DNA from: a virus
Lineage: Duplodnaviria; Caudoviricetes
DNA length: 64,000 nucleotides
IMG/VR virus record: IMGVR_UViG_3300014204_000110
Strand: one strand, 5' to 3'
The translations under genes were made by a program, and so were the position numbers. Below the pieces are notes generated by a model, which saw only the letters and a program-made list of their open reading frames with translations, ran no database searches and was not told the DNA's origin. Every line of letters begins with the position of its first letter. Within the stretch, counting starts at the first letter, position 1. Below are positions 1,577 through 49,076 of the stretch, piece by piece.

Positions 1577-2200
1577 TCAATGTTTCAAAAATGCTACATT
1601 AAAAGTAAAGTCACACATACAAATATTGCAAGTTTTTCCGCATCCCGAACGGCAAATAATCCAAGTATTTACGTCTGGAATATCTTCTTCTTTAGATATT
1701 ACTGTTGTAGTTCCATCAAGACTTTCATGAGACCATCCAGAGCCTCGTACAACGAAGTCTCTTCGAGAAAAATCAAGGTCACGTCTGGCTGTATAACCAT
1801 AGGTTGTGATGTTATGCTCTTCTTTAAAGTATTTCGCAATATCTGACAGCTTTGTAATGTCTGATTGATTGTGAAAATCCCCAGCTTCATTAAATCGTAT
1901 ATAATTAGTTTCTTTTCTTCTTGATTTAATTTTTTTACTAAATTCACATATGAGTTGATCGCTGCTTTTTGACTGCCACTCAGCTTCTTGAGCACGTCTA
2001 CTTGGTAATACCGCTTTGTATAATCCTTCGTCGCGTGTTGCATAACATTGTACCTTACTACCACAAATGTGTTTTAAAGTATATTGGTTATTATAAATAG
2101 GACATAGTCCTAATTTTTTACTACTACAGTCTGTTGCTGAACTCATGTTAAAAACACCAATTGAGTCATTTAATTTATGATTTCCAAATTTTAATAACAT
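1577..2200 (-). CDS. Gp88-like Cys-rich (radical-SAM-related) phage protein
   Basis: GNHKL..FNMSSATDC..LGLC...CYA...IRFNEAGDF...YGYT pattern. Confidence 0.6.
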   Translation of the reverse strand: MLLKFGNHKLNDSIGVFNMSSATDCSSKKLGLCPIYNNQYTLKHICGSKVQCYATRDEGLYKAVLPSRRAQEAEWQSKSSDQLICEFSKKIKSRRKETNYIRFNEAGDFHNQSDITKLSDIAKYFKEEHNITTYGYTARRDLDFSRRDFVVRGSGWSHESLDGTTTVISKEEDIPDVNTWIICRSGCGKTCNICMCDFTFNVAFLKH

Positions 2201-2430
2201 TAACCTATCCTTAAATTTATATTTCTTGCTTTATAATCTTTTGGTATGTCGAGCTTAATTGATGGAATACTATCTGAAAAAACGTCTGTATCTATGTCTA
2301 GATCTAATTTAAGGCAAATTTCATTCTTTTTAATTTCATTTTTATTTGAAGATATTCTTGCTGAGATAGATCCACTATATCTTTTAGTACTTTTACTTAA
2401 GTATAAATATTTAGTAACTTTTGTGTTCAT
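2200..2430 (-). CDS. hypothetical protein with C-terminal NLR tag
   Basis: ends NINLRIG*; coupled to next gene by TAATG. Confidence 0.6.
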   Translation of the reverse strand: MNTKVTKYLYLSKSTKRYSGSISARISSNKNEIKKNEICLKLDLDIDTDVFSDSIPSIKLDIPKDYKARNINLRIG

Positions 2431-2431
2431 T

Positions 2432-2692
2432 TTAATCCCTTAAATTAATATTTTTTCTTATTTTTAATTCTTTTGGTGTTAATTTAGTGATTTTAGTTTC
2501 TATTAATCTAGTTATATTTTTATCTTTAATTTCTTTATTTGATGAAGTTATTAATAATCGACCATGTCCATTACAATTAGAACAAGTTATATCATATTCC
2601 CATTCATCTTCATCTTCATGTGTCGTTTTACCATAACCATGACAATTTTCACATATTATTATACCTTCATGATATAAATCATTAACTTTCAT
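2432..2692 (-). CDS. DnaJ-type CxxCxGxG zinc-finger protein with C-terminal NLR tag
   Basis: CENCHGYG...CSNCNGHG; ends NINLRD*. Confidence 0.7.
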   Translation of the reverse strand: MKVNDLYHEGIIICENCHGYGKTTHEDEDEWEYDITCSNCNGHGRLLITSSNKEIKDKNITRLIETKITKLTPKELKIRKNINLRD

Positions 2693-2942
2693 AATCTCTT
2701 CTCAAGTTTATAGTTTTATACTTTATTGGTGTTCTTTTTGGTGTTCTTTTTTTGATTGGTTCAGTGTATATTTCACAATCTGAAGCAAGTATATATCCAC
2801 ATCTTGATCTTTCAGGAATAATAGCTTTATAGTTTAAACCATCTACAAAATTATAATCTTTATCTTCTACTTCAATTGTTTGATTAATATATGGATAATA
2901 CCAATAATCTTCACTTGGAGAATCAATTATTTTAACTTTCAT
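2682..2942 (-). CDS. hypothetical protein, paralog of 6731..6928, C-terminal NLR tag
   Basis: MKVKII...WY...IN...I...DC shared with 6731..6928; ends YKTINLRRDYES*. Confidence 0.65.
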   Translation of the reverse strand: MKVKIIDSPSEDYWYYPYINQTIEVEDKDYNFVDGLNYKAIIPERSRCGYILASDCEIYTEPIKKRTPKRTPIKYKTINLRRDYES

Positions 2943-3130
2943 ATAAGTTCTATTTCTGAAATAGTTAGATCTTCAATATAAGTTTCTTCAGTTTCAGGAT
3001 CTTCTGGACAAAATTCAATACAGAATGCACAGTCGTTCCAGATTGATATAATAGTTCCATGTGTTCCTACTGGAATATTTTTATTAGATATAACTTTTGT
3101 AGTTTTAATTACATCATGTTCTTTGTACAT
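2939..3130 (-). CDS. DUF4926-like small protein
   Basis: KEHDVIK...IPVGTHGTIISI...AFCIEF pattern. Confidence 0.55.
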   Translation of the reverse strand: MYKEHDVIKTTKVISNKNIPVGTHGTIISIWNDCAFCIEFCPEDPETEETYIEDLTISEIELI

Positions 3131-5884: not shown

Positions 5885-6535
5885 TCATAGGTCACTCACA
5901 TTTAAAAGTTTTTCATGTACTAGTTTTTCTCTAAGACGATCTACAAGTTCACTAGTTATTGTATAGTTTTTATATATACTAAAACCTTTATCTATAAGAG
6001 AAGAAATAATTGTTTCTAGATCTATACATACATTATGTGTTATTTCTTTAAGATTATTATTTTTAGATCCAGATAGATTAGATATATAACAACCTTTTGT
6101 TAAAAACCAATAAACGTATAAAATATATATAGATTTATCGATTCTTAAATTAATTTCTCCAGTTCCATCTAGTAAGACTGATTTAATAACTGAAGATCTT
6201 ATATGACTTGGATTGTATTCTACCAGAGTTTTTAATACTTTACCCTTATGTTTAAAAATAATTGGTAATATGCTATTATCTAATTGTAATATACGATATC
6301 GATTATCTATTGATTGTTTACATAATGCTTCTAGATTGTTATAAAAATTACTTTGCTCTGGAAGTCTAGAACTTTTCCATCTTAGTAGTTCGTATGTGTT
6401 TTTATATGTATCTATTATATGAAATGATCTTTTAAACATACTTCTAATAGGACGTGTTACTTGTAAGTCATCAATTGATATATTACAAGCTTTAATGTTA
6501 TCAATAATCATTTCGTAATTCACCTTATCCACCAA
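5885..6535 (-). CDS. hypothetical protein
   Basis: 216-aa ORF overlapping neighbours; internal EINLRID. Confidence 0.55.
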   Translation of the reverse strand: MVDKVNYEMIIDNIKACNISIDDLQVTRPIRSMFKRSFHIIDTYKNTYELLRWKSSRLPEQSNFYNNLEALCKQSIDNRYRILQLDNSILPIIFKHKGKVLKTLVEYNPSHIRSSVIKSVLLDGTGEINLRIDKSIYILYVYWFLTKGCYISNLSGSKNNNLKEITHNVCIDLETIISSLIDKGFSIYKNYTITSELVDRLREKLVHEKLLNVSDL

Positions 6536-6731
6536 TCAATTTATTTGTTACACATACTTTTTTGCATCTAGCTATCTCAGTTTCAGAGATCATATCTCCA
6601 TTAAATAAACAGTTATCTAACCAAATTGATCGACCGTTAGATAATTCTATATTTAATATATTAAGTGCTTCTGAAGTTTCATATTCTTTATCTTCATAAC
6701 CTGTTTCAAGTGTTCGTTCTATATTTATCAT
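6525..6731 (-). CDS. putative ubiquitin-like (beta-grasp) protein ending in Gly-Gly
   Basis: 68 aa, C-terminus VCVTNKLIGG*; E1/ThiF gene about 2.7 kb upstream in the same train. Confidence 0.6.
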   Translation of the reverse strand: MINIERTLETGYEDKEYETSEALNILNIELSNGRSIWLDNCLFNGDMISETEIARCKKVCVTNKLIGG

Positions 6732-6928
6732 TAATCTCTCCGTAAATTTATTGTTTTATAATTATTTTCATTTATAAGTATACAATCACATTTTGGTATA
6801 CAAGCTATAAGATGTTTAAGTTCATAATAACATTCATGAGTATTAATATTTTTTATTGGTGTAACATCATTTATATTATTTTTATACCAACTATCTTTAT
6901 TAGAACATTTAATTATTTTAACTTTCAT
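6731..6928 (-). CDS. hypothetical protein with C-terminal NLR tag
   Basis: ends YKTINLRRD*; paralog of 2682..2942. Confidence 0.65.
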   Translation of the reverse strand: MKVKIIKCSNKDSWYKNNINDVTPIKNINTHECYYELKHLIACIPKCDCILINENNYKTINLRRD

Positions 6929-9252
6929 AACTCTTCCTGAAGATTATATATTGTATGTGCAATACTACTATCGTTTTTAAGAGCAAGCATCTTGGCTATT
7001 ACTGTATCGTAACTTATATTAGATTTTATATTACTCTGATCAATCATACAGATGTATTTACCTTCAGAATAATAATCTGTATCTGTTTTTATAGGATTCA
7101 TAAATACATATGAGTCTTTATTATTATAAGATATTATATATTCTTTTCCAGATAGTCCTGTAAGTTTAATACCATCCATAAGTTTATGTGTTTTCTTATT
7201 ATGATATTTTACGTATTGAGCATTAAGTTCACTTACTTTTTTATCTAGATATTCTTTACTCTTATCTTTAAATGCTTTATATGTACTATCAATAAGAGTC
7301 TTGTATTTAATATAATCTATACATGATTCACTTCCATCAATAATACATTTTTGAATCTTATCATTAAGATCAGGAATTCGATCTTCGATAAAATTAGAAT
7401 ACAATAAAGAAATGATCTTTTTACCAGTGATTTTAATAGAAGTATCATCTAGAAGTAGTTCGTAGTTTGATCGACCTTTAAGTTTTTTAAATCTAAATAA
7501 TTTATTATTTTCTTCATTAGATTTTTTACTTAGATCGACTTCATATCCTGTAGATATACCTATATATACTGAAAGACCAAGACGACCAATATTTTCTATA
7601 AAATTATCAGCTTCTTGTTGATTTTGATAACAGGTAATCTCTTTAAGGACCATTATAATTTCATTTTTATTAAATCTACGATCATTTATATAATAAAGCT
7701 GACTACTAGATATTACTTGAGATTCGTCTTTTTCACCAGTTTCAGTCTTGGCACACCGTTTAGAAATTTTTCCAGTAATATTAATATTAATTTTTTCATT
7801 TATGTTTATAGGAATATTAAGATCTTCTTTTTTAGTAAGAGTTAAACGACTGTCTAGTTCATTAAATATTTTTTCAATCAACTTATCTAGAATATCTTGT
7901 TCTGTAATTTCATTTCTATAATAGCTTATTAAATAATTATTAAATAATGTATATAATTTTGATTTGATATATTCATCATTTATAGATATTGAAAAATCAT
8001 TATATTTAATTTTTCCTTCAGTATGGTTATATTTTATATTTTCAGTTATTGTTACATCTTCTCCAAGTGCGCTATTCTTTTTTACAACATAATTAAATTC
8101 ATCACTCATTATAGATAAAGCTTTAAGTTTTTTTCTTATACCAGTTAAATCTTTTGTATGATCAGTATATTCATATTGATCATACGTTGCTTTAGCTTTT
8201 AAATTTTTATCTTCAATATAAGTTCCATCAATATTAAAATTATCTTCACATTCCTCTTTAAGAAAACTTAATATATCTTGTTCTAGAATAAGTTTATAAT
8301 TTTCATTAACTTTAGGATCTTGACTTGCAAAAATGTCCCAACTATGAGATTGAGTTGCTAAACCTATAAATAATCTACCTTTATCAATTAAATTATATGG
8401 AATTTTAATATAATCTATAATATTATATTCTCTATATACGTTTTTTGATCCTAATGAAAATATATTTTTATAAGGTCTACATTGTTCTGATGTTCCAGAA
8501 CTTTTACTATTATGACATGTTCCACAATTACTATCTTGAAACCATTTTAATATATAATATCTTCTATCTCCAACTTCTTTTACTGAAGTAATTTCTCCAA
8601 AAAATATACTTAAATTCGAATTAATATTAAATTTTGTATTTAATACTATATTTTTATCATTAATATTATTTTTTAATTTATTAATTATTTCATTTTGAAT
8701 GTTTGTAAGATCAGATAATCTATTTTTTATACTAACTAATTCTTTAAAATTTTCATTATATTTTATTAGATCATTATAAGTATTATTATTTCTAGATTCA
8801 TCTTCTTTTTTATAATCTAGTAATGAATTTAACTGCGATTTATTAATACTATATCCAGTTAATGTAGGAACAACAATAGCTGATATTATTTCAGAAATAT
8901 TAAAGTTATTACATCTATGTTGTTGAATTAAATTTGATAATTTATCATTGTTATTATTTTCATGTATGATTACATCAATTGATTTTTCAATCTCTTCAAT
9001 AAGATTCCATTTAGCTATTATATAAGTTTGATTTTCTTTCAAGATAAAAATAAGTTGTCTTTGCTTATTTCGTATGATTGAAAACAAAATATTAGAATGC
9101 TCAACTTTTTTAAATTCATCTAAAAGCGTTCCAATTTTAGTAACAACTGTTTCATTAGCTAAAAATTCTTTAGAATTAAGTTCAAAGTTTAATAAATTAT
9201 TTAAAACATTTGAAAGTCCATATTCTGTACTTATCTCTGGAGCAGTTTTCAT
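6925..9252 (-). CDS. large hypothetical protein with C-terminal Cys-containing domain (candidate Ubl acceptor or E2-like)
   Basis: 775 aa between Ubl and E1; C-terminal GLSGKEY...GKYICMID...DTVIAKMLALKND. Confidence 0.5.
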   Translation of the reverse strand: MKTAPEISTEYGLSNVLNNLLNFELNSKEFLANETVVTKIGTLLDEFKKVEHSNILFSIIRNKQRQLIFILKENQTYIIAKWNLIEEIEKSIDVIIHENNNNDKLSNLIQQHRCNNFNISEIISAIVVPTLTGYSINKSQLNSLLDYKKEDESRNNNTYNDLIKYNENFKELVSIKNRLSDLTNIQNEIINKLKNNINDKNIVLNTKFNINSNLSIFFGEITSVKEVGDRRYYILKWFQDSNCGTCHNSKSSGTSEQCRPYKNIFSLGSKNVYREYNIIDYIKIPYNLIDKGRLFIGLATQSHSWDIFASQDPKVNENYKLILEQDILSFLKEECEDNFNIDGTYIEDKNLKAKATYDQYEYTDHTKDLTGIRKKLKALSIMSDEFNYVVKKNSALGEDVTITENIKYNHTEGKIKYNDFSISINDEYIKSKLYTLFNNYLISYYRNEITEQDILDKLIEKIFNELDSRLTLTKKEDLNIPININEKININITGKISKRCAKTETGEKDESQVISSSQLYYINDRRFNKNEIIMVLKEITCYQNQQEADNFIENIGRLGLSVYIGISTGYEVDLSKKSNEENNKLFRFKKLKGRSNYELLLDDTSIKITGKKIISLLYSNFIEDRIPDLNDKIQKCIIDGSESCIDYIKYKTLIDSTYKAFKDKSKEYLDKKVSELNAQYVKYHNKKTHKLMDGIKLTGLSGKEYIISYNNKDSYVFMNPIKTDTDYYSEGKYICMIDQSNIKSNISYDTVIAKMLALKNDSSIAHTIYNLQEEL

Positions 9253-9467
9253 TAATCTTTCCTTAAATTTATTGTATGTTTACGATTTTCTTTTCTTTCA
9301 AATTCATATATTTTTTCAGTTTTATTATATATAAGTTTTGGCTTAAATTCAGATATAGATTTTTCAAGTCCTCTACGAAACTTACATACATGAGAATTAT
9401 ATTTTATATTATCTTTATATTGATAACAAAATTTTTGTGATATACAAGTTACACAATCTTTATTCAT
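9252..9467 (-). CDS. small Cys-rich protein with C-terminal NLR tag
   Basis: CVTC....C...C; ends HTINLRKD*. Confidence 0.6.
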   Translation of the reverse strand: MNKDCVTCISQKFCYQYKDNIKYNSHVCKFRRGLEKSISEFKPKLIYNKTEKIYEFERKENRKHTINLRKD

Positions 9468-9482
9468 AATCCATTATAATAT

Positions 9483-10052
9483 CTATAACATAAGTTGAAG
9501 ATCTACTGGTAGTTTATTTGATCGACTATAATTTAAAATAATTTGAGCTAGAATAGAAGCTATCACAACGTTACCGTATTCAATTTCTTTACGTTCTATT
9601 TGAAATGGATTTTGACACGATGAACTTTTAGTATCAGAAGATAATGTTTGTTCATAGTTCTTAGTGTCACTGCTAAATATACCTATGGCTCGTCCATTAG
9701 CTCGACTATCTATAAATGGAATTCTATTATCTATCCAGTTACGATAAGCTTCATGACGTATCTTGTTATTATCAGCACAAAGTATTACAAGATCACATTG
9801 TTTAAGATCGTTATAATCTAATCGTTTAATATTAAAATTAATATTAAAATATCTATAAGATAAAGCATCACTTTTATAACTATCGATATCTTTAGTAGTA
9901 AAATTCTGATAAAGTATATTTTTAAGTTCTACTTTATCATCGTCGTAGAATGTAAAATTCATATTTTTAATTTGTTTAAGTTCTATTAATCTATCTAGAT
10001 GATGGACTGTATATCCGCCTATTCCACCATTTCCGATTCCGATCACATTCAT
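9483..10052 (-). CDS. ThiF/MoeB/E1-family adenylyltransferase
   Basis: GNGGIG, YDDDKVELKNILYQNF, DLVILCADN, FIDSRANG, distal SSCQ. Confidence 0.9.
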   Translation of the reverse strand: MNVIGIGNGGIGGYTVHHLDRLIELKQIKNMNFTFYDDDKVELKNILYQNFTTKDIDSYKSDALSYRYFNINFNIKRLDYNDLKQCDLVILCADNNKIRHEAYRNWIDNRIPFIDSRANGRAIGIFSSDTKNYEQTLSSDTKSSSCQNPFQIERKEIEYGNVVIASILAQIILNYSRSNKLPVDLQLML

Positions 10053-11245: not shown

Positions 11246-11673
11246 ACGTCTCCTTTTATATAACTATCAAATTCAGAATTAGTCATATTTAATTTATCTT
11301 TAGTATCTTTAAGTTCTTTAAGTAATTTAATAAAATCAGAAAATTTAAGAGCACAATAATCTTCTGAATGATTACGAGAGAATATAAGTAATGGTGGATG
11401 TTTACGATTATCACTTTCAGCTTGTTTAAGAGCTGACCATATATTTAATTTCTCTTGATTTTTATTTTCTATACTAAATGGTATACATTCTCTAGCTTTT
11501 TCTGAAAGTTTAATGTCCTCGCCTGGAACACCACCTGGTGTGGGGTAAACACAATCTTCAGATAAGTTAAATGTTGTACGTATAAGTTCAGCTATTCGTT
11601 GAGATAAACGTCTTCCCTTCGATTTTGATGCAGCAATGCTTATACGCTTCTTTTTCTTTATAATTTCAGTCAC
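11242..11673 (-). CDS. PD-(D/E)xK nuclease, Holliday-junction-resolvase-like
   Basis: SKSKGRR...GEDI...SIENKNQEKLNIWSALKQAE. Confidence 0.75.
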   Translation of the reverse strand: MTEIIKKKKRISIAASKSKGRRLSQRIAELIRTTFNLSEDCVYPTPGGVPGEDIKLSEKARECIPFSIENKNQEKLNIWSALKQAESDNRKHPPLLIFSRNHSEDYCALKFSDFIKLLKELKDTKDKLNMTNSEFDSYIKGDV

Positions 11674-12253
11674 GTAAGTTAATTCCTTTTGATTTATTTT
11701 CGTTTATAAATTTTTCACATATCCAGATGACATCTTTTTCTTTTCTATAACCTAAAAGATATCTTAAATGATCTTTCTGTCCTTGAGATGTATATTTAGG
11801 AGATGTTCGTATAATGCAATAACCTCGTTGAGATGATAAATTCTTAAATCCAGCACATAAAAAATCATAAGATCTTAATAATGTATTAATAGAACTATAA
11901 TTTTTAAGACCAAGTATAATATGATAATGTCTATGTGAAGTTAAAACAACATCTATATCATTAATACTTGAATCCTGTATAAGTATATTACATTGAGATT
12001 GAATACAATCAAAATTTTCACCATCAATGTCTAGAGGACATATTTTAGAATTATATATATCAAATATAAGACCATATGCATAATAGTCTATATTATTCAA
12101 ATCTATAATACTATTAAATGGTTCTAAATATATTTCTGATGAGTGTTCATATTTAAGTGAATGAGTATATATAACTTTTTTATATGAATCTAGATATCTA
12201 TCAGAATGGTATAAGGTCGTGATATAATTTGAATAATTTATTTGTTGTATCAT
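11666..12253 (-). CDS. AEP (primase-polymerase) fold protein with C-terminal NLR tag
   Basis: LDID...TSHRHYHII...IRTSPK; ends GINLRD*. Confidence 0.5.
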   Translation of the reverse strand: MIQQINYSNYITTLYHSDRYLDSYKKVIYTHSLKYEHSSEIYLEPFNSIIDLNNIDYYAYGLIFDIYNSKICPLDIDGENFDCIQSQCNILIQDSSINDIDVVLTSHRHYHIILGLKNYSSINTLLRSYDFLCAGFKNLSSQRGYCIIRTSPKYTSQGQKDHLRYLLGYRKEKDVIWICEKFINENKSKGINLRD

Positions 12254-12680
12254 TACTTAAAACCTGATGTTCTATAATAGGTTTGTAAAATAATCCAGAT
12301 GAATTAATTATAACTTCTTCTTTAATATCACAATCTAATATTGGTCGAAATATATCTATATCATGGCCAAATAATTCTATTTCATGTGATGATATACGCT
12401 TAAGACCTTTTAATCTTAAAACTTCAGATCTAGATATTATTCTAATTGATCTTATAAAAGTATTATTCATTAATGTTGATTGTAATATATTAAGTTTTCG
12501 ACCCATATAATAGAAACCATCTTTAGATTCTGTTATTATATAAAGCTTCCATGATGGTTCTTGAATGTCTGATCTTAAATTAATTTTAGTATGTTTAATT
12601 ATATCTGTACAATATTCAAATGAAAAATTATAGATATAAGCTAATTTTAATAATCTTTTAAGATATATAATATCAGTCAG
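12201..12680 (-). CDS. hypothetical protein (start uncertain)
   Basis: open frame downstream of the zinc-ribbon gene; contains KINLRSD. Confidence 0.45.
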   Translation of the reverse strand: MTDIIYLKRLLKLAYIYNFSFEYCTDIIKHTKINLRSDIQEPSWKLYIITESKDGFYYMGRKLNILQSTLMNNTFIRSIRIISRSEVLRLKGLKRISSHEIELFGHDIDIFRPILDCDIKEEVIINSSGLFYKPIIEHQVLSNDTTNKLFKLYHDLIPF

Positions 12681-14504: not shown

Positions 14505-14845
14505 TTCGTCCCCAATTTAGAAGTTATATATTTATCTATATAAGTATCAAATCCAAATAATTTAGTAAGATTACTCTTTTTAAGCATACAAGAAATATCT
14601 TCTTCAGATATATTATAACAGTTAGCTACATGAAGTTTAGTTCTACAATGAGTCATAAGACTATAAGGATAACTTCTTGTTGGTTGTCTTATTCTAGAAC
14701 AACATGATTGTTCATCTGTTGGATACCAACGCTGTGCATTGTCAAATTGACCATCTGGATGGATCATTCGTTCTTTAAGCTTTATGTATTCTATTGTAGC
14801 TTTAACTATGTTTAGATCTAAGTTATCTGTTCTGAGATTAATCAT
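14501..14845 (-). CDS. phage protein with N-terminal NLR tag
   Basis: MINLRTD; core HPDGQFDNAQRWYP..CC..IRQPTRSYPYSLMTHCRT..HVA. Confidence 0.65.
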   Translation of the reverse strand: MINLRTDNLDLNIVKATIEYIKLKERMIHPDGQFDNAQRWYPTDEQSCCSRIRQPTRSYPYSLMTHCRTKLHVANCYNISEEDISCMLKKSNLTKLFGFDTYIDKYITSKLGTK

Positions 14846-22577: not shown

Positions 22578-22587
22578 AATATTCTCC

Positions 22588-23025: not shown

Positions 23026-24771
23026 TTAAATAACTATATCATCTGTTCTAAGATTGACTTTAGTTTTCTTTTGTTTAGTTTCTTTTGGTTTAATAATTCC
23101 TGAAGATACGTTATTAGCATTATCTTCTGACCATTTTCTCATTGATGAGATTTTTTCTTTACCAACTTTTGTAATAGGTTTAATTTTTCTTAGTGTTTCT
23201 AAGATATCATCAGTTGTGATGTCATCTTTACCACCTATTTCAATTTCCTTTCCTTTTCCAAGAGCAAATTTGTTTCTAAGAGCATCTTTGATACTACTTT
23301 CTATTTCTGCTCCAGTAATAACAAATTTAGTTCCATCTAGATCTTCATATTCATAACTTGCTAGTTTATTTATGTCAAACTTTGATGGATCTCTTTCTCG
23401 TTTAGAGATATGAATTTTAAAGATTTCTTTACGTTCTTCACTATTTGGAACATCAGAAAACCAAATTTCATCAAATCGACCTTTACGTAAAAGTGCTGGA
23501 TGATTTGCTCTTATTGTACTAATATCATTAGCTGTAGCTATAAGTAACATTCCAGGATGTTCTTCATTAAGCCAATTTAAGAATGTTCCAATGACTCTAT
23601 TGGTTGTTCCGCCGTCTGTTTTGTCTGAACTTCCTGCTCCAGATAGTGCTTTATCAATTTCATCTATAACGACAACTCCACCAACAGCATCTGCAAGTGT
23701 AAGACCTTGTCTTGCTCTTTTCTCGCTTTCACCCATCAAAGATCCAAATACTTTACCAATGTCAAATTTAATAAGACTTGTCTTGAGTTCATGAGCAATT
23801 GCTTTAGCAATTAAAGTTTTACCACTACCTTCAACTCCAATAAGCATAATTGCTTTTGGTGGTTCAGTTTTAAATTTGATTGCATTATCAGCATTTTGTA
23901 TAACTGTTTTTTGTGTAGATATCCAGTTTTTAATATTATTAAATCCACCGACTTGATTTAAATCATCTGTACTATTCCAGAATTCTAGAATATCAGATTT
24001 ATTAATAATTGATTTCTTTTCTTCTATTATACTAGCAACATCAATCTTTTTTAATGTTACCATGCTGTATTGTAAAGTATTAATAATCTGATCTTCAGTA
24101 AGACCACAACATGCACGAGCTATATCATCTTCAACGTATTCTGGATTAATTTTATCAGAAGCATTATATTTTTTATTATGATCAGCTATTTGGTTATTTG
24201 TATCTTTAAGAAGTAGTAAAATCTCATCATAAGTGGGATAATTAAGTTTAATAAATACAGTATCTTTCTCAATTTCAGTTGGAACTGTGATACCGTATCC
24301 AGTTATAACTATTGTTGAATTAGCTGTAGAAGCTAGATAGACAAGATCTTTTAGCTTTCTAAGAATAACTGGATCTTTAAAGAATTTATCAAGATCTCTT
24401 AATACGTAGATATTTCGTTTTTCATTATTTACATCAGTAACAGTTTTTCCACGACAATCTTCTTCTATAACTGCAAATGCATATGCTGGATTCTGTCGAG
24501 TATCAAACTTTCCACCACTTCCAAGACGTGCTTGTGCACTTGGAAATTTATGTGGAAAGAATCTGTTTACATTGATTTTATTTCGATCAATTTCATGCAA
24601 TCCTTGACCAATTGACCAAAAGTTTACTACATCGTCTGGATATTTCTTTAATATCTCACGAATAACTCTTGTTTCTTCTGGAGTATCTATAAAGATTAAT
24701 CCAGCACTACAATCGATACGATCAAAAACAGGCTTAAATGTTTCAATTACAGTAAGTTTCTTTTTGCTCAT
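23026..24771 (-). CDS. AAA+ ATPase, Ycf46-like, with C-terminal NLR tag
   Basis: VGGFNNIKNW, GVEGSGKT, IDEIDK, ATAN, LLRKGRFDEIWF; ends KVNLRTDDIVI*. Confidence 0.9.
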   Translation of the reverse strand: MSKKKLTVIETFKPVFDRIDCSAGLIFIDTPEETRVIREILKKYPDDVVNFWSIGQGLHEIDRNKINVNRFFPHKFPSAQARLGSGGKFDTRQNPAYAFAVIEEDCRGKTVTDVNNEKRNIYVLRDLDKFFKDPVILRKLKDLVYLASTANSTIVITGYGITVPTEIEKDTVFIKLNYPTYDEILLLLKDTNNQIADHNKKYNASDKINPEYVEDDIARACCGLTEDQIINTLQYSMVTLKKIDVASIIEEKKSIINKSDILEFWNSTDDLNQVGGFNNIKNWISTQKTVIQNADNAIKFKTEPPKAIMLIGVEGSGKTLIAKAIAHELKTSLIKFDIGKVFGSLMGESEKRARQGLTLADAVGGVVVIDEIDKALSGAGSSDKTDGGTTNRVIGTFLNWLNEEHPGMLLIATANDISTIRANHPALLRKGRFDEIWFSDVPNSEERKEIFKIHISKRERDPSKFDINKLASYEYEDLDGTKFVITGAEIESSIKDALRNKFALGKGKEIEIGGKDDITTDDILETLRKIKPITKVGKEKISSMRKWSEDNANNVSSGIIKPKETKQKKTKVNLRTDDIVI

Positions 24772-27362: not shown

Positions 27363-27548
27363 TTAGTTTCTATCTCGTGTAAGATTACCAAGCTTTGTAG
27401 CAATACTTCGGCTTGTATACGAGAGTAATCTAGATGTAGCGAATCGGCTACAATTAATATGATCAGCAATCTGTCTTGCTGTCCAACCTTTTTGTCTTCC
27501 TGATAGAATCATTTGATTGATTCTTTTTGGAAACTTTGACTTTGACAT
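27363..27548 (-). CDS. small basic HTH-like protein
   Basis: AAGGAG RBS; KGWTARQIADHIN; overlaps the Clp gene 3' end. Confidence 0.5.
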   Translation of the reverse strand: MSKSKFPKRINQMILSGRQKGWTARQIADHINCSRFATSRLLSYTSRSIATKLGNLTRDRN

Positions 27549-29544
27549 TACTTTTCTCCTTTGAGAGTGTTTGAAAAACTTGTCTTGGTATTTCTGAAGA
27601 TAATTTAGATATAACATCATGACCATTTTTAGAATCAGATGTTATTTGAGCTTTTAAAGATTTTGTATCAATCTTAATATTATACATATTAAGATAATAA
27701 TCTAAGTTTTTATCATAAATATTTGAAATATCATTTTCATTTAATTTATTAAACACAATGATTTCGTCACTTATATTTACAACATCTTCTCCGATTAATT
27801 CTTTTAACTTATCTTTAGAAAGTTCATTACTATCTTTTTTATCTTCGTTTATACTAAAACCCATTGTTTTTGTTTGTTTATTATATAGACTTTCTAGGTC
27901 TTTTTCTTCTAATGTTACTGAAAAAATTATTATTGTATTATTTAACTTAGCTTCACGTTCAGCACTATCTGTCATTTTACCAGTTCTACAACAATCAACT
28001 ATGTAACTTTTTATAGTATCATGTGCATGATTTATTCCTCTGAAATAAACGACACTTAAAGGATTTGTTCTTACTGCTTTTATAAGTCCTCCAGATTTGG
28101 CATAACCTACATATCCAGGAGGTGCACCTTTAAGTTCTGTAAGTGAAAATTCTTGTTTAAATCCACTCATATCATAATCAATAAAATAATTTTTAGATCC
28201 AAATAGATATTGTGAAAGTAATTGTGCTGAAGTTTTTTTACCACAACCACTTGGACCGATATATAAAAGTATTGATATTGGACGTTCACGATCATATTTA
28301 ACATTTTTAAATATATTAACAATATTTGATAATTTATCTATTTGTTCATTCTGTCCAAATATATTAGATTTGAGTTCAGTAGAAATAAAATTATAGTCTA
28401 GACTATTTTCAATTTGATCATAATCAACACCTGTTACTGAAGATATTGCTAAGTTAATATATTTATCTGTTAAAACTCGTTTACCTGCTATTGTAACTAT
28501 ACTTTCAAGTTCTTTTCTATTTTTATCTAAACTTAACAATTTATTATCTGATTGTAATATATTAACATCAGTTTGTTTAATTTCACGTTCATACATGATT
28601 GAACAAGCGATGTCTAGAATATCTAATGATTTATCTGGATTCTTTCTTGTTCCTAAAAATCTACTTCCAGTTTCTACAAGTTTCTTACATATTTCATTTG
28701 GGATTATACATTTATGATGATCTTCATATACACTTTTTGTACCGATTATCATCTTAATTGTTTCTTCAATATTTGGCTCATTAACTGGAATTACTGTAAA
28801 TCTACGTTCTAGAGCACTATCCTCTGTTATAATAGAATGATATTCATTTATTGTTGTACTTCCTATAAAACGTATCTTTTCAGTAAGATAAGGTTTAAGA
28901 ATGTCATTCATCTTATGACCAAGAAGTTGATGTACTTCATCTATAAATAGAATTACTTTATCATATTCAGAAGCTTTTTCAAGTATGTTTATAATAACTG
29001 TTATTGGATCGTCTTTATGTTTTGATAAGATATAAGGAACGTCCATATTGAGAATATAACAACCTTTAAGTTGTCTAGGAACTGTACGTTCAATAAGTCT
29101 AGCATTTACGGCGTTGACAAGTGCAGTTTTTCCCACGCCTGCTGGTCCGATAAGTATACAACCTCGTTTATTCTTTTTACTTAAAGTTAAAAGAATGCTT
29201 TCTATTTCTTTATCTCGACCTGTAATAATATTACCTTGTTGATATTTCATTATCTTACAAGGAGAAAGTTCTTTAAAATTTAAACTAAGTGGTGAATATG
29301 ATAATGAATCAGTTTCTATAATTTTTATAGATGTAGCTATAAGATTTTTAATGTCATTTATAGATGTATAAATACCATCAGGGAGTTGAGAAGACAGATT
29401 ATCTATAAATATATTTTCAGTTATTTTATCTTTTATGTCATAACTTTTGACGATATTTAAAGCTTGAGATGTAAAAATATCTGTAATATTTTTAGAAACA
29501 AATAACTTAAATAAGTTTTCAACTGATGGAGATAATTTAATCAT
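27463..29544 (-). CDS. ClpA/ClpC-like double AAA+ protein with degenerate second module
   Basis: GRDKEI, GPAGVGKT, FIDEVH, ALERRF, PDKSLDILD; D2 GPSGCGKK, GAPPGYVGY, MGF loop. Confidence 0.9.
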   Translation of the reverse strand: MIKLSPSVENLFKLFVSKNITDIFTSQALNIVKSYDIKDKITENIFIDNLSSQLPDGIYTSINDIKNLIATSIKIIETDSLSYSPLSLNFKELSPCKIMKYQQGNIITGRDKEIESILLTLSKKNKRGCILIGPAGVGKTALVNAVNARLIERTVPRQLKGCYILNMDVPYILSKHKDDPITVIINILEKASEYDKVILFIDEVHQLLGHKMNDILKPYLTEKIRFIGSTTINEYHSIITEDSALERRFTVIPVNEPNIEETIKMIIGTKSVYEDHHKCIIPNEICKKLVETGSRFLGTRKNPDKSLDILDIACSIMYEREIKQTDVNILQSDNKLLSLDKNRKELESIVTIAGKRVLTDKYINLAISSVTGVDYDQIENSLDYNFISTELKSNIFGQNEQIDKLSNIVNIFKNVKYDRERPISILLYIGPSGCGKKTSAQLLSQYLFGSKNYFIDYDMSGFKQEFSLTELKGAPPGYVGYAKSGGLIKAVRTNPLSVVYFRGINHAHDTIKSYIVDCCRTGKMTDSAEREAKLNNTIIIFSVTLEEKDLESLYNKQTKTMGFSINEDKKDSNELSKDKLKELIGEDVVNISDEIIVFNKLNENDISNIYDKNLDYYLNMYNIKIDTKSLKAQITSDSKNGHDVISKLSSEIPRQVFQTLSKEKSNVKVKVSKKNQSNDSIRKTKRLDSKTDC

Positions 29545-29896
29545 ATAAGTCCCTGTGTAAGATACCATTCAATAAATTGAGAATCGTTTATTCTTAGATC
29601 ACTTTGGTAATCTACATAATTAATTATTCTTTTTTCAAGTGTTGGATAATTTTTAATATTTTTAGATGTTACTAAAATAGGCTTACACATAAAATTAAGT
29701 AATCCCATTTCTATAACTGTAACTTCATTTATACTATTAATAACCGCCAATTTAATATTAGGAATCATTATAATATTTAATGAATCATTAAGTGTCCAAG
29801 TAGATAAATCTAATCCTAAAAGAATATCTAGATGTAATCTATCTTTTATTTTTGCTTTAATAACATCACAACAACTATCTGTATAAATCAGATTAT

Positions 29897-30761: not shown

Positions 30762-31213
30762 TAGAAGTACCTATTTCTAGTATCAAAAGTAACTGTTACG
30801 CATTGTTTATATTTATTTTTTTGAATATTTTTATTTTTGATGAATATATTAAAATATCTTAAATGTTGTTCAACTTTTCTTATACATATACATAATGACT
30901 CTTTTGTAAATAATATATGATTAATGTTTTGAAGATTTAAATTTAAATTAATATTACCTAAACAATATGTATGTCCTCTATAATTTAAATTAGTAGTAAA
31001 AATAGTAGCATTATCTTCAATTATTATATATATATTTGTATTATGTTTTTGACAGATTGGAGTAAATATTTCTATAAGTTGTTTTTCAAGTTGTTCATTT
31101 TGAAAAGTAATATCATTTTCAATTTCTTTTTTCTTTTTACAATACGATGTTCTCTTCTTGAATAGTTCTATTAAGTTTTCTATCGGTGAGTTCAGATCTT
31201 TTCTCAAGTTCAT
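30761..31213 (-). CDS. hypothetical protein with N-terminal NLR tag
   Basis: starts MNLRKD after AAGGAG RBS. Confidence 0.6.
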   Translation of the reverse strand: MNLRKDLNSPIENLIELFKKRTSYCKKKKEIENDITFQNEQLEKQLIEIFTPICQKHNTNIYIIIEDNATIFTTNLNYRGHTYCLGNINLNLNLQNINHILFTKESLCICIRKVEQHLRYFNIFIKNKNIQKNKYKQCVTVTFDTRNRYF

Positions 31214-32418: not shown

Positions 32419-32685
32419 TTATAACTCCAAATCTTTGTAACTAATTATTTTAACATCTCTTGCTTTAGCAACATTTATTTTAGTCATTCCAGGATCATTT
32501 CCAACTATAAGATAATCTGTATAACTTCTAACTGTAGAATTATTTTTTACATAATATGTTTTATTTAAATATATTTCAAATTCTATTCTTGTATATCCTG
32601 GAATAGTTCCTGTTACACAAATATTTTTATATTTAAGATCTATTTTTTGTTTTGGTTCTTGATCTCTACGTAAGTTTATACCCAT
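32419..32685 (-). CDS. stand-alone BRCT domain with N-terminal NLR tag
   Basis: ICVTG...R......STV...TDYLIVG..PG.TK...A....VKIIS; starts MGINLRRD. Confidence 0.8.
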   Translation of the reverse strand: MGINLRRDQEPKQKIDLKYKNICVTGTIPGYTRIEFEIYLNKTYYVKNNSTVRSYTDYLIVGNDPGMTKINVAKARDVKIISYKDLEL

Positions 32686-33095
32686 TAATTACCACAGCAT
32701 GATTTAGGTTGTTTAAGTAATTCTTCAGTTTTAGTTTTATTAGTTTTAAAATTAACTATTAACTTATTTTTAAGTTCTTTAGCTATCTGACAATATTCAA
32801 GTTCAAGTCTTAGTAAATTTTTATTTTCTTCAGAAAAGTCTATTGGACAAGATATATTTAATATATAATCTTGATCTTTAAGTAAAACTATTTCTTCAAA
32901 TATATTTACGTTTATATTGTTAATTCTACAGAATGAAATTATATGACCGCCGACACATAGACCGAGTGATGATAATAATAACTCTAGAGGTGTATGAAAA
33001 TATAAATTACTTGATGTCTTTCCTCGTATAGGAACTTTTCCTACTGAAGTAATATTAATAATGTTATTTTTATCTCTCAGATTAACTGTTATCAT
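32685..33095 (-). CDS. OsmC-like protein with N-terminal NLR tag
   Basis: TPLELLLSSLGLC...YCQIAKEL; starts MITVNLRD. Confidence 0.6.
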   Translation of the reverse strand: MITVNLRDKNNIINITSVGKVPIRGKTSSNLYFHTPLELLLSSLGLCVGGHIISFCRINNINVNIFEEIVLLKDQDYILNISCPIDFSEENKNLLRLELEYCQIAKELKNKLIVNFKTNKTKTEELLKQPKSCCGN

Positions 33096-33121: not shown

Positions 33122-33343
33122 TTATAAATTATGACTTTTATCGATACTTGGATATAATTCTAACTTTCCGTAATAATTAATACTTAATATATTTCCAGCA
33201 TTATATTCATAAGTTCCATCTTTATTAACTATTGATAAAACTACACGATTATTATCTCTAAATAGTCTTAAGTATATTGGTGGTTTATTTTCTAATTGTA
33301 ATTCAACTATTTCTTTTTCATCATAAGCTCGTAGATTAAGCAT
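33122..33343 (-). CDS. hypothetical protein with N-terminal NLR tag
   Basis: starts MLNLRAYD. Confidence 0.55.
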   Translation of the reverse strand: MLNLRAYDEKEIVELQLENKPPIYLRLFRDNNRVVLSIVNKDGTYEYNAGNILSINYYGKLELYPSIDKSHNL

Positions 33344-41351: not shown

Positions 41352-42011
41352 TTAATTAGTAAATAAACCTTTACTAAAACTTTCAAGTTTAATATCATCA
41401 TTTGATGTTGTTGATCGTGTACTCATATATCTTACTGAAGCAGTGTTAACATTATTCCACATATCTGTTGTTCCAGTAGAATCGCTAGAATATTTAAGTG
41501 AACTTCCTCCAGCTAAATTTAAAGTATATTTTACTACTGAAAGATCTTGATTAGCTCCGATGTAATTTATTGTCCATCGTTTTGTATCTAGACGTTCAGA
41601 GATCATTTCTGAAATTTGTTTACTGTTATATTCTACTGAACAGTTTTCTGCTCCATCACTTATGATTAAAATAACGTAAGTTGTAAAATCATTATCAATT
41701 ATGCTATTTTTCATTTCATTAAGTAATTTAGCAACACCGTCGTACATTGCTGTTGTACCATTAGGATTATAATCTTTATCTGTAAAATCAACGATGTTAT
41801 TTATAGGTGTAGCATTAAACACTGTAGAAATATTATCTCTACTTGAAAATTTAACAAGGGTAAGTGTGGTTTCAATGTCTGAAAACTTTTTATATTCTTG
41901 TATGTGTTCATTAAGTCCAGAAACCGTTTCTCGTCTGGAACTAGCCATACTACCACTTTCGTCTAGTGCAATGCCTATATGTACTATTTTTTTATCAGCT
42001 CTAAGATTCAT
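41352..42011 (-). CDS. vWA (MIDAS) domain protein with N-terminal NLR tag
   Basis: LDESGSM, GTTAMYDG, ISDGAENCS, YIGANQD; starts MNLRAD. Confidence 0.88.
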   Translation of the reverse strand: MNLRADKKIVHIGIALDESGSMASSRRETVSGLNEHIQEYKKFSDIETTLTLVKFSSRDNISTVFNATPINNIVDFTDKDYNPNGTTAMYDGVAKLLNEMKNSIIDNDFTTYVILIISDGAENCSVEYNSKQISEMISERLDTKRWTINYIGANQDLSVVKYTLNLAGGSSLKYSSDSTGTTDMWNNVNTASVRYMSTRSTTSNDDIKLESFSKGLFTN

Positions 42012-42542
42012 TGTATGTCCTCCAATGTGTTTGTTAATTTATTTGTCATTTCTACTAATTTATTAGAATCATCTATTCTAAGATTAATAGTTTTTTTAAT
42101 GTTCATATATTTTTGAATATCATTTACTTGTTCTTTAATATCTTTAAGTACTTGTTGATTTGTTTGAACATATGAACTTATACAATTTCTAATTTGAGTA
42201 AGATATTCTATATTTATTTCTAATTGTTCAAATTTTCTTATTTTATTAGTTATTTCTTTTGAATAATTAACAGTATTATCTATATTATAACATCTATGAT
42301 CTAGCTCAATTATAACATCTATGATCTAGCTCATTAACATCTATTTTTAAACTTTGTATAGATTCTTGTATTTCTTTGTATTGTTCTTGATTCATATCTA
42401 GTTCTTTTAGTAATAAACTTTCTATGATTTCTGTACATATTGGACAAAATTCATCAGAATTATGTCTATCAAGGATACCTCTAAGTATTGTTTTATCATT
42501 TAGTGATATTCCTGGATGTGATGTTATAATATCTTTATTCAT
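42008..42542 (-). pseudogene. 169-aa gene frameshifted by a 25-bp tandem duplication
   Basis: removing one copy of 42284-42333 restores one ORF ending in an ATGA overlap with the vWA start; N-terminus paralogous to 42539..42790. Confidence 0.75.
42284..42333. repeat. perfect 25-bp tandem duplication
   Basis: ATTATAACATCTATGATCTAGCTCA x2. Confidence 0.95.
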
Positions 42543-46406: not shown

Positions 46407-46407
46407 G

Positions 46408-46812: not shown

Positions 46813-46814
46813 GG

Positions 46815-47258
46815 TTATATATCATTTGAAGTTAATAATCCACTACATAAGAGATCTACTAGACGCGAATTTAAGGCATCACGTTCTAATTTATAACAAT
46901 CATCACATAATGTTTGTATCCAATCAAGATCTTTTCTTAATTTCCCAGATTTTCCATCATTTTCACATAGTGTATAAGATAATTGTTCAAATTGATTAAG
47001 TTGCCAGAATATTTTATTAAATATATCTTCCCATTCTTCTTTGGATAAATTTTCTTTTAATTTATCATAATTTAGATTTATTCTTAATCCACCTAATTTT
47101 TCTTTTATTTGAAATATTTCGATAAGTTTTTTTGTATCAATATCTGATAAGAAAGATAAAGTTAGATATATTAAACTATTCCATCCAGAACCGCATTCAA
47201 ATTTAAAATTATCTAGAAACATATATTTGTATTTATCTATAATTTCTTTTTCTGTCAT
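46815..47258 (-). CDS. conserved phage protein
   Basis: FECGSGW...QIKEKLGGLR...S...CE..G......WI.TLC..C. Confidence 0.65.
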   Translation of the reverse strand: MTEKEIIDKYKYMFLDNFKFECGSGWNSLIYLTLSFLSDIDTKKLIEIFQIKEKLGGLRINLNYDKLKENLSKEEWEDIFNKIFWQLNQFEQLSYTLCENDGKSGKLRKDLDWIQTLCDDCYKLERDALNSRLVDLLCSGLLTSNDI

Positions 47259-47575
47259 TAATCTTTCCTTAAATTTATATTTTTATATTTTGATATTATA
47301 TGATTATTTAAAAAAACTATATGAGCTTCTCCTCTATTCCAATCTCTATAAGATTCACTTATTAGTTTATATGAATATTTTCCAGTTAAAGATTTAAGTA
47401 TATTATCATCTATTGATTCTAAATTTTTTATAGTTGCTGTTCTTTCAGAAAATCTATTTCCATCAAGTAATGATATTAATTTTAATTCAAAAAAATTTAT
47501 CTGAGATAACATATAATAATTATAAAATGTATCTATTTCAAAAATATTTCCTATTTTATACATATTATTTTCCAA
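47258..47575 (-). CDS. hypothetical protein with C-terminal NLR tag
   Basis: ends YKNINLRKD*. Confidence 0.6.
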   Translation of the reverse strand: MENNMYKIGNIFEIDTFYNYYMLSQINFFELKLISLLDGNRFSERTATIKNLESIDDNILKSLTGKYSYKLISESYRDWNRGEAHIVFLNNHIISKYKNINLRKD

Positions 47576-48062
47576 ATATTTTTCTTATTAATGCTATAAT
47601 AATATGAACGCTTCCAAAAAACAATATCATAATATTTAGAATTATTAATTTATATATATTTATACAAAGTTTATTTATAAAATTTCCAATATTACTACCT
47701 AGATTGTCACAAAATTCAACTGAACGATCAAATTTAGCTTTATCAGAATTAGTAAACATTACTTTTCCTTTGGATAGTTATGAGTTCCTGGAGTAAATTT
47801 TGGTATTTTAGAAGTATCACCAAGTACACGAACGTAATCTCTTGTTATATCAAAAGATATTATAAGATCAAACTTTTTACCTTTTCTACTTTTATATTCT
47901 ACATCAATCCAATAACCTTTAAAAGTTCCTGTTTCTGACCATTGTTTAGTTATAACAATACGATCAGGATCTTGAGTTTTTCCTTCTTTTAGATTATTAC
48001 CAATTACTTTATAAACGTATTTTGTACATTCTGGTATTGTAAGTTTCATAAGATTTTCTATA

Positions 48063-48135
48063 ACTCCTGTAATGGATTTGAACCATTGATGATAGTTTTG
48101 CAGACTATAGACTTAGGCCACTTGTCTAACAGGAG
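48063..48135 (-). tRNA. tRNA-Cys(GCA)
   Basis: CTCCTGT/ACAGGAG, ATAGT-CTGCAAA-ACTAT, AATGG-TTCAAAT-CCATT, U73. Confidence 0.9.
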
Positions 48136-48141
48136 ATGTTA

Positions 48142-48252
48142 AATATTTAGTAAAACGTAGCTTACTCAAGGCTACTGGCTTAACTTATATTTATATATCT
48201 ATAAATATCATGTATGCTTATGTACATCATATAGAGTATTTTACTAAATATT
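48142..48252 (-). ncRNA. putative four-way-junction RNA immediately 5' of tRNA-Cys
   Basis: 14-bp closing stem AATATTTAGTAAAA/TTTTACTAAATATT enclosing three hairpins. Confidence 0.4.
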
Positions 48253-48662
48253 ATATTCTGAGATTGCTGGAATTTTGGTATTTTTCATAAATGACATAGT
48301 AACTCCATTTGATACTGGTCTTGTAGATTGAACTTTTGCTTCAATAAATGTACATACTTTTACTGGACTTGAAAGTTGAAACATTTCAGCACTTTTTGCT
48401 ATTACACTATCAAATGAAGAACAAATAGATCTTGGAAGATATTCTTTAATTTCAAATGGTTTGAAATATTTAATATCAATTGTATTAAGAGCATCTGTTT
48501 TACGTTTAGATGAGTCTCTACCAGTTTTACGACAGAAGTTATCATTTAAATGTGTAATTGAAAATCCTACCAGAAGTCTGTCATCTGGAGTTTTTTTGAT
48601 ACAATAACTATGAGCCAATGTATCTTTATTATCTTCTCTTACATGAAAATACAGTTCATCTT

Positions 48663-49076
48663 TCATTTTGTCTCCTTTTGAGTATTAGTTAATATGTTTA
48701 AATCTTGTGTACTTGCTGTTATAATACTAGAATTTATTAACTGCTTTAATCTAGCATGATTATATGTTCTATCTATTGCTTGTTTACTATCTTCTTTTTT
48801 AATTATATTATTATCAATAATAACATAGTTATATTTAATTATGTATATATTTCTAATTGTATCATTTATTTTAAATCCTAATGGAAGAATACAAGCTATA
48901 GCTATAAATAAACTTGCTACTCCAGATACTAACCATTTTGTAAGTTTATAATAATATAATTCTTCACCTTCAAGTTGTTTAGCTACTTTAAGTTTTTCAA
49001 GTTCAAGTATTTTATCTTCTGAAAGGTATTTATATGCATTTTTATCTTCTTTATTATGTCTAAGATTTAAGTTCAT
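48663..49076 (-). CDS. membrane protein with N-terminal NLR-like tag
   Basis: starts MNLNLRHN; one TM segment. Confidence 0.55.
   Translation of the reverse strand: MNLNLRHNKEDKNAYKYLSEDKILELEKLKVAKQLEGEELYYYKLTKWLVSGVASLFIAIACILPLGFKINDTIRNIYIIKYNYVIIDNNIIKKEDSKQAIDRTYNHARLKQLINSSIITASTQDLNILTNTQKETK

Follow-up and report, generated by a model that had tools for sequence, protein, structure and literature searches.

A recurrent terminal h-N-L-R-x-D peptide, probably a docking tag, on unrelated proteins of an uncultivated jumbo phage lineage

Introduction

Eukaryotic cells and their viruses are well known to use short linear motifs that connect many proteins with a single hub. To our knowledge, only a few terminal labels have been described for phages, namely the capsid targeting sequence (CTS) of T4 and host degrons on phage proteins, and we know of no degron code private to a phage. 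The T4 CTS is also found on arrays of small variable open reading frames (ORFs). It is exclusively N-terminal, comprises 10-20 residues and is removed by a gp21-type protease (PMC5694885). The targeting peptides of Family 1 encapsulins are usually C-terminal, with TVGSL found also at the N terminus of a ferredoxin cargo, and the encapsulin shell is of phage-capsid descent (PMC8346489). Here we analysed a 64-kb stretch of an uncultivated virus (IMG/VR record IMGVR_UViG_3300014204_000110; hereafter the window) and describe a peptide tag, h-N-L-R-x-D (h, hydrophobic; x, any residue), which occupies 4-6 residues at the very beginning or end of about two dozen of its proteins and those of the adjoining genome. 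It very probably represents a terminal docking tag that acts at the peptide level. Literature searches retrieved no description of this motif, and the nearest known things are the T4 CTS, the encapsulin targeting peptides and terminal degrons.

The tag resembles the T4 CTS as a short terminal peptide common to unrelated phage proteins, apparently an address rather than part of a fold, with 15 N-terminal copies in this genome and ~50 across related loci. However, nine further copies are C-terminal, the core spans only 4-6 residues, and the carriers reside in the non-structural block of the genome. With the encapsulin peptides the tag shares a terminal, linker-borne position, a length of ~10 residues, the possible use of both termini, and alternating small and hydrophobic residues with a basic end (TVGSLK/R compared to TINLRR). 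Nevertheless, its h-N-L-R core is devoid of the Gly-Ser of the GSL(K/R)-type consensus SDGSLGIGSLKRS, and dozens of carriers contrast with the one or few cargo enzymes of an encapsulin; no encapsulin-type shell gene was identified. The degrons of AAA+ proteases, such as the ssrA tag and the N- and C-motifs of ClpX/ClpA, likewise occupy free, unstructured termini of unrelated proteins, and an unfoldase and a peptidase are encoded in the same genome as the tag. The known degron classes nevertheless differ from one terminus to the other and belong to host-encoded systems. In addition, the IxI/V anchoring motif of small heat-shock proteins (sHSPs) has an h-x-h core following basic residues in a C-terminal tail, and the sHSP of this phage, which ends in KKRVEIV, adjoins an array of N-terminally tagged genes at C3:38928-40861. 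In the anchoring motif, however, the middle residue is free and Arg is not required, whereas Asn and Arg are the most conserved residues of the tag, and we know of no instance in which it is borne by dozens of clients.

Results

The motif is enriched at protein termini only

Contigs C121 (135,678 bp) and C3 (92,863 bp), both from a mixed bin, were treated as a single jumbo-phage genome of ~229 kb, their joint length agreeing with that of the longest contig (229,018 bp) on record for the AAA+ protein of the window; positions 1-47799 of the window are the end of C121 and the remainder is the start of C3. ORFs were called greedily on all low-GC (guanine plus cytosine) contigs of the bin, which gave 341 ORFs and 71,035 residues for C121 and C3. 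A match to [ILVM]NLR was classed as N-terminal if it ended within the first 10 residues, and as C-terminal if it started within the last 14. Fifteen N-terminal matches were seen, compared to 0.19 expected from within-protein shuffles and 0.39 from column shuffles, in which residues are swapped between proteins in each terminal column so that the composition of the ends is kept, motif residues included. The nine C-terminal matches compare with expectations of 0.28 and 0.30, respectively. Internal matches, by contrast, were not enriched (five seen, 3.8 expected from within-protein shuffles). The pattern NLR.?D gave 17 terminal matches, whereas permuting the three residues in front of.?D into the five remaining orders gave 0-1, and the other low-GC contigs of the bin yielded three terminal copies among 1,318 ORFs. 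Altogether, the counts on C121 and C3 against shuffles, permutations and other contigs indicated that the excess, ~50- to 80-fold over the shuffled null, is strictly terminal and specific to this phage.

The tag had been noticed in an earlier sequence-only reading of the window, which listed 15 terminal and four internal copies; all are found at the positions given, and the positional count against shuffled sequences that it proposed bears it out. Its description of the tag as genome-wide does not hold, as the copies are confined to ~123 kb, from C121:59.7 kb to C3:47 kb, which is the non-structural part of the genome. Tag carriers amount to ~7% of the ORFs on the two contigs. In this phage and its relatives, the tags include a KTINLRRD type, an MNLRxD type and a long MNLRLIEHNRYK form.

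Carriers are unrelated and bear the tag outside their core domains

A BLAST comparison of 44 carriers of a relaxed motif against all ORFs gave no carrier-to-carrier match at 1e-3, in line with the claim that the carriers are unrelated. Among the families proposed for them, the AAA domain is supported by Pfam, the DnaJ-finger, BRCT, OsmC and vWA assignments fall below the Pfam cut-offs, and the AEP fold suggested for the protein at 11666-12253 was not confirmed. Lys-rich linkers adjoin the tags, which, as had been proposed, lie outside the core domains. The AlphaFold2 model of the Ycf46-like AAA+ ATPase, computed from a 29-sequence alignment, has a mean predicted local distance difference test (pLDDT) value of 83 and is confident except for the last 25 residues; the tail of residues 557-581, which bears the tag, has pLDDT <55 and is thus predicted to be disordered. 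In the vWA and BRCT orthologues, basic linkers of variable length separate the tag from the domain. Furthermore, tandem arrays of small unrelated ORFs have only the N-terminal tag in common (C3:38928-40861, and the arrays of the related loci L038 and L039). The possibility that these array proteins are fragments of the virion proteins of the phage was rejected, for BLAST gave no match at 1e-3.

The tag is conserved within one phage clade

The Ycf46-like AAA+ ATPase has ~95 orthologue clusters, with 43-71% identity over the aligned part. Within their last 30 residues, 54 of the 95 contain h-N-h-R, with a Lys-rich stretch before it and an acidic h-x-[IL] end after it, and 27 more contain close variants (N-h-K, N-h-F or h-x-h-R). 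The motif is missing from more distantly related Ycf46-like proteins of cells, which end in an acidic run plus (P/R)(R/K)LE(L/I/M), for example PRLEL. Similarly, 18 vWA orthologues of the clade start with MNLRx(D/E/N) and a basic linker of 2-8 residues, whereas homologues at ≤39% identity have either the first vWA strand (MxKKIYNLIILDESGSM) or a Lys/Ala/Pro-rich tail at their very start. The BRCT orthologues keep (A/G)LNLR(R/T)G followed by charged linkers of ~10-45 residues, the 150-residue family keeps N/Q-L-R, and C-terminal tags recur on the orthologues of the 71-, 76- and 195-residue proteins. The internal KINLRSD of the protein at 12201 is conserved in the related locus L029. The proposed check of whether orthologues of the BRCT, vWA and Ycf46-like proteins in other phages lack the extension thus showed it to be absent from homologues outside the clade and kept in clade orthologues.

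Nine syntenic loci of the clade (23-36% GC, on contigs of up to 230 kb) encode 22 N-terminal and 11 C-terminal tags among 286 ORFs, compared to none and four, respectively, among 535 ORFs of 21 loci of distant phages that encode a Ycf46-like AAA+ protein. In the L038/L039 lineage, five or six adjacent small genes share a longer N-terminal tag, MNLR[LA]IEH[NR][RK]Y[KR], the synonymous sites of which are free. Conservation in orthologues, absence outside the clade and freedom of synonymous sites strongly indicated that the tag, as judged from these alignments, is specific to the lineage, was acquired at protein ends repeatedly and is under purifying selection. Together with the terminal-only excess, the unrelated carriers and the linkers, this fits a convergently acquired short linear motif, as originally suggested.

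The signal resides in the peptide rather than the DNA

The tag is encoded by six Leu, five Arg and both Asn codons, from which selection on the peptide had been argued. In the N-terminal and internal copies, the Leu, Arg, Asn and Ile codons are used at the synonymous frequencies of the genome (TTA 48%, CTT 32%, AGA 59%), and the N-terminal copies, which lie 0-3 codons past the start codon, contain no Shine-Dalgarno-like bases. By contrast, AGG occurs in five of the nine C-terminal copies and CGG in one; genome-wide, these account for only 4% and 1% of Arg codons, respectively. Most of these copies are followed by an overlapping TAATG, with the Leu-Arg codons (TTA AGG) doubling as the Shine-Dalgarno sequence of the next gene. 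The over-use is limited to the C-terminal copies because they are also the ribosome-binding site of the overlapping next gene. As three C-terminal copies (those of the genes at 2682 and 11666 and of the AAA+ ATPase) and all N-terminal copies lack such bases, the Shine-Dalgarno sequence is an overlay and not the cause of the tag. The codon-level neutrality of the N-terminal copies and the retention of the peptides across diverged DNA support selection on the peptide.

Copies in the window and their neighbourhood

Most of the copies listed originally stand as tags (Table 1), and two or three are probably none. The MITVNLRD of the OsmC-like protein aligns with IHIRDKN, VHLRDKN, ISIKDKN and VKLLDNN (summarised as hxhRDKN and hKLLxNN) in orthologues, so that it is most simply explained, on this alignment, as the first strand of the OsmC-like fold, and probably not a tag. 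The internal EINLRID is not conserved in orthologues and is probably an ordinary strand. The NAPRTase copy and ILNLRG are within chance expectation for internal sites. At 42277-42326, a 25-nucleotide tandem duplication splits a frame into an 85-residue ORF (42306-42563) and, downstream, the start-less frame with TINLRID; this could be a frameshifted gene or a feature of the assembly.

Table 1. Tag copies and candidate reader genes in the window, with residues of orthologues at related loci (L numbers)
Feature	Position	Strand	Remark
C-terminal INLRIG*, 76-aa protein (2200-2430)	2203..2220	-	L030 orthologue ends RTINLRMS*
C-terminal INLRD*, 86-aa CxxCxGxG zinc-finger protein (2432-2692)	2435..2449	-	
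Near-C-terminal INLRRD(YES*), 86-aa protein (2682-2942)	2694..2711	-	
C-terminal INLRRD*, 65-aa protein (6731-6928) within ubiquitin-like (Ubl) cassette	6734..6751	-	
C-terminal INLRKD*, 71-aa protein (9252-9467), between E1-like and 775-aa genes	9255..9272	-	L029 orthologue ends YNINLRRD*
C-terminal INLRD*, 195-aa protein (11666-12253)	11669..11683	-	orthologues end KLNLRTS* (L029), RICLRHG* (L030)
VNLRTD in C-terminal tail predicted disordered, Ycf46-like AAA+ ATPase (23026-24771)	23041..23058	-	
C-terminal INLRKD*, ~101-aa protein (47258-47575)	47261..47278	-	
N-terminal M-INLRTD, 114-aa protein (14501-14845)	14825..14842	-	
N-terminal M-NLRKD, 150-aa protein (30761-31213)	31196..31210	-	orthologues start MGLNLRN, MNLRSD, VGVQLRQ, MALQLRA
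N-terminal MG-INLRRD then charged linker, 88-aa BRCT-like protein (32419-32685)	32662..32679	-	
MIT-VNLRD, OsmC-like protein (32685-33095); probably structural first strand	33072..33086	-	
N-terminal M-LNLRAYD, 73-aa protein (33122-33343)	33320..33340	-	
N-terminal M-NLRAD, vWA protein (41352-42011)	41994..42008	-	
N-terminal MN-LNLRHN, 137-aa membrane-type protein (48663-49076)	49059..49070	-	
Internal KINLRSD, residue 70 of 197-aa protein (12201-12794)	12567..12584	-	L029 aligned place: TKLNLRES
TINLRID, 22 residues before stop of split reading frame	42071..42088	-	
ClpA-like two-ring AAA+ unfoldase, putative reader	27463..29568	-	
Ubl(-GG) / 775-aa protein / E1-like cassette, alternative putative reader	6525..10052	-	two tagged small genes interleaved

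Every gene of the window lies on the minus strand, and the GC content is ~26%. Large proteins are encoded on the plus strand in a module at C121:1-48 kb; beyond C121:48 kb, a long leftward block of small, replication-type and metabolic genes extends to ~C3:37 kb. Searches of cultured phages by DNA and protein found no close relative, the best match of the AAA+ ATPase having 31% identity. Searches for related loci with the vWA protein or the 775-residue protein gave nothing, or only two contigs already in the comparison set, and PHROGs was uninformative on the conserved neighbour genes. The bin, G000, mixes host-like contigs of 41-45% GC with ~1.08 Mb of contigs of <31% GC, which have little mutual similarity. 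Head proteases of the T4 type (S77) occur twice among the latter, on C25 and C18, and the bin seems to combine several different large phages.

The Ycf46-like AAA+ gene is directly followed, in every clade locus, by genes of a DUF2997 protein (65 residues) and a DUF1257-like protein (136 residues), at 22380-22998 in the window; the three genes form a conserved module. Some clade orthologues of the ATPase (~935 residues, with a LAGLIDADG domain) carry inteins, as do orthologues of the UvrD-like helicase (843 residues, with an Intein_splicing match) in some clade members; the window copies of both are without (intein-bearing relatives: P0011, P0022, P0053-P0057 and L035:16841-19372). The AAA+ ATPase and a 187-residue protein (20165-20728) share a second C-terminal ending, acidic-h-x-[LI]-stop (TDDIVI and DDTIEL, respectively). 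In orthologues it appears as DEEITL, SNHIEL, DVEI and EIEL, and cellular Ycf46-like proteins have a similar end, (R/K)LE(L/I/M). By sequence, the ending may represent a separate docking motif of older origin.

A further N-terminal peptide, M-K-[ILT]-R-x-G-F-V-S-N-S-S-S-S-[SN]-[FY], is common to ~14 otherwise divergent proteins, encoded at 14037-14504 of the window and by ~13 genes at C121:79.5-84 kb, just upstream of it; one of these proteins also has KTINLRND at residue 26. The OsmC-like protein (32685-33095) ends in SCCGN, and its orthologues in CCGS, CCGGN, CCGAK, CCGG, CCGEK or CCGK. A C-terminal Cys-Cys-Gly recurs in GCCGGCI, the end of a tagged 100-residue protein (C121:87033-87335) beside a radical-SAM-like gene. 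The 120-residue protein encoded just upstream of the ClpA-like gene was considered as a ClpS-type adaptor and rejected, as it is not ClpS-like; its model (pLDDT 92) has a generic flavodoxin/receiver-like α/β fold with weak matches only (best template modelling score ~0.6).

Discussion

A Clp-type machinery as the putative reader

We propose that the tag was added, via flexible and mostly basic linkers, to free N- or C-termini of unrelated non-structural proteins within one lineage of ~220-kb uncultivated phages, where selection at the amino-acid level would maintain it. One receptor might read all copies. As a leading but weak guess, this reader would be the phage's own Clp-type machinery, composed of a ClpP-like peptidase and a ClpA-like unfoldase that has a novel N domain as well as an MGF loop of the ClpP-docking type. 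The tag would accordingly serve as a recruitment or degron label in the scheduled remodelling or removal of early and replication-associated phage proteins. Taken as a whole, this proposal of a clade-specific docking tag read by the Clp-type machinery is tentative.

Unfoldases of the Clp type need a free, unstructured terminus to engage a substrate, and the tag occupies accessible, unstructured termini in a genome that encodes both an unfoldase with a peptidase-docking loop and a peptidase. The ClpA/ClpC-like two-ring ATPase has no middle domain, a 110-residue N domain that matches no known family, and the MGF tripeptide at what we take to be the position of the IGL loop of ClpA. The ClpP-family match (60.8 bits, C121:48849-49337), in the gene at C121:48822-49418, lies at the far end of the non-structural block, outside any head module. 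Synteny of the ClpA-like gene with tagged genes holds in each of the nine clade loci examined, and no such gene was seen within 10 kb in the 21 distant loci. Co-folding of the tagged BRCT protein with the ClpA-like N domain, the Ubl and the sHSP gave a score of 0.00, which speaks neither for nor against binding.

Several points weigh against the Clp machinery. The step from tag to receptor is one that we infer, and the co-occurrence of tag and ClpA-like gene is inseparable from shared clade ancestry. In the AAA+ ATPase, another 4-12 conserved residues come after the tag, unlike the usual arrangement of C-terminal degrons. Moreover, the AAA+ tails of some lineages have R replaced by K or F or have lost the motif, whereas other proteins of the same phages keep N-h-R, suggesting that the AAA+ copy may serve another purpose. 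This mismatch, seen in L006, L035, L037, L038 and L039, where changes in the AAA+ tail are not matched in the other tags, gives no evidence of co-evolution via the AAA+ copy. Known ClpA and ClpX degrons differ between the N and C termini, while here one sequence is found at both. The ClpP-like protein could itself be a head protease; profile searches found neither a T4-type (S77) nor an HK97-type (S78) protease on C121 and C3. In addition, the arrays of small variable ORFs that have only the N-terminal tag in common resemble the T4 internal-protein locus and favour a capsid-cargo role.

A possible capsid or compartment cargo label

In such a role, the tag would be the address label of a phage-encoded sorting system that, by one short peptide working at either terminus, loads at least two dozen unrelated proteins into the procapsid or another phage-built shell, to be packaged and delivered with the DNA, a reading that we consider unlikely. 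The T4 CTS and the encapsulin targeting peptides act in this manner. Family 1 encapsulin targeting peptides are short, terminal and linker-borne, and TVGSL(K/R) by eye resembles T-I-N-L-R-(R/K) (PMC8346489); T4 head proteins likewise bear N-terminal targeting sequences (PMC5694885), and the tagged arrays at C3:38928-40861 and in L038/L039 would suit cargo. An h-x-E sequence, the site of the T4-type protease, occurs within 14 residues past the tag in 40% of tagged N termini, compared to 21% of untagged ones (P=0.004). However, this excess may only mirror the acidic composition past the tag (D+E 17.7% compared to 11.3%), and with h-x-E after only 40% of the tags they do not form propeptides ending at an (L/I)-x-E site as the T4 CTS does. 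The S77 family (PF03420) matches only C25 and C18 in the bin, and the mismatch with the encapsulin consensus described above also counts against this reading. Furthermore, all carriers lie in the non-structural block, and several are of replication type, including the AAA+ ATPase, the BRCT protein and, by eye, a Cas4-like nuclease.

Possible docking on a host hub

It is rather unlikely that the tag docks early phage proteins on a conserved host hub, such as the RNA polymerase core, a chaperone, a protease adaptor or a replication factor. Phages of 23-36% GC, sampled at different places, all retain the four core residues, which a very conserved receptor would explain. The RpoH box of sigma-32, a segment that contacts the polymerase and binds DnaK, contains F-N-L-R. 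Its contact with RNA polymerase has been described (PMC3441632). On the other side, the published binding profile of DnaK rejects Asp everywhere and, at positions 2-3, accepts only residues that are aliphatic, aromatic or basic (PMC2717214), which fits poorly with the invariant Asn and trailing Asp of the tag and weakens DnaK as the hub; the phage genome encodes no Hsp70. The sliding clamp was set aside, since its main client, the polymerase PolB, has another conserved peptide, LD-h-V-x-M-x-[DE]-L, at its C terminus, and SSB was rejected as it has its own canonical acidic-LPF tail.

Possible recognition by the ubiquitin-like module

The Ubl module encodes a 68-residue protein ending in LIGG, a minimal ThiF/E1-like protein and the 775-residue Cys protein. 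That it recognises the tag is improbable. The tag would either mark substrates, with lysines supplied by the linker next to it, or be a strand that interacts with the Ubl, in the manner of the SIM and LIR motifs of eukaryotes. Consistent with this, two tagged small genes are interleaved with the cassette, which is also present in the relatives L029, L030 and L040, Lys-rich linkers flank the tags, and the Ycf46-type AAA+ ATPase is itself tagged. The interleaved genes are nevertheless dispensable, as L030 has none between the E1-like gene and that of the large protein, and protein conjugation by the cassette is only presumed, with a role as sulfur carrier as the alternative.

Structural and nucleic-acid explanations

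Jointly, non-peptide and structural explanations are very improbable. The h-N-h-R alternation fits a β-strand, and the ribbon-helix-helix repressor Arc has F-N-L-R; the OsmC-like copy is probably a structural strand of this kind, and the proteins at 2682 and 6731, which share MKVKII...D.WY, may be paralogues. That the tag is generally part or remnant of a fold, for instance the initial strand of a ribbon-helix-helix, or reflects hidden paralogy of the carriers, is nevertheless barely credible: C-terminal copies reach the stop after 0-2 residues, so that the helices of the ~45-residue two-helix domain cannot follow, Pfam found neither a ribbon-helix-helix nor any other family common to the carriers, BLAST gave no mutual similarity, and the tags sit on apparently disordered linkers of variable length. 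Hardly any credence remains for a nucleic-acid signal (a ribosome-binding site, or a junction or recombination signal) read incidentally in frame, even with the tags at gene junctions, AAGG or CGGAG at Shine-Dalgarno distance from where the next, overlapping gene starts in six of nine C-terminal copies, and a YNLRKD reading in L029 that runs, in a different frame, across the end of an unrelated upstream gene, given the 15 N-terminal copies with genome-frequency codons, the persistence of the AAA+, vWA and BRCT tags as peptides in highly diverged DNA, and a pattern that is not one of base-level conservation independent of frame and synonymous sites, on which a pure ribosome-binding or junction signal was rejected.

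Implications

Altogether, a whole uncultivated clade of ~220-kb phages appears to have repeatedly attached one peptide to unrelated proteins. The identity of the reader would give dozens of proteins of unknown function a common step, be it sorting, packaging, timed turnover or tagging, and would explain why these phages carry their own ClpA-like, ClpP-like, Ycf46-like and Ubl/E1 genes. Should the sorting-label reading be true, the encapsulin targeting peptides would have a viral counterpart in the tag, and possibly their evolutionary source; a private degron or Ubl-recognition code read by the phage ClpA-like/ClpP-like or E1/Ubl machinery would, if true, be equally unprecedented. Knowledge of the reader may also yield a compact, terminus-independent tag for protein engineering.

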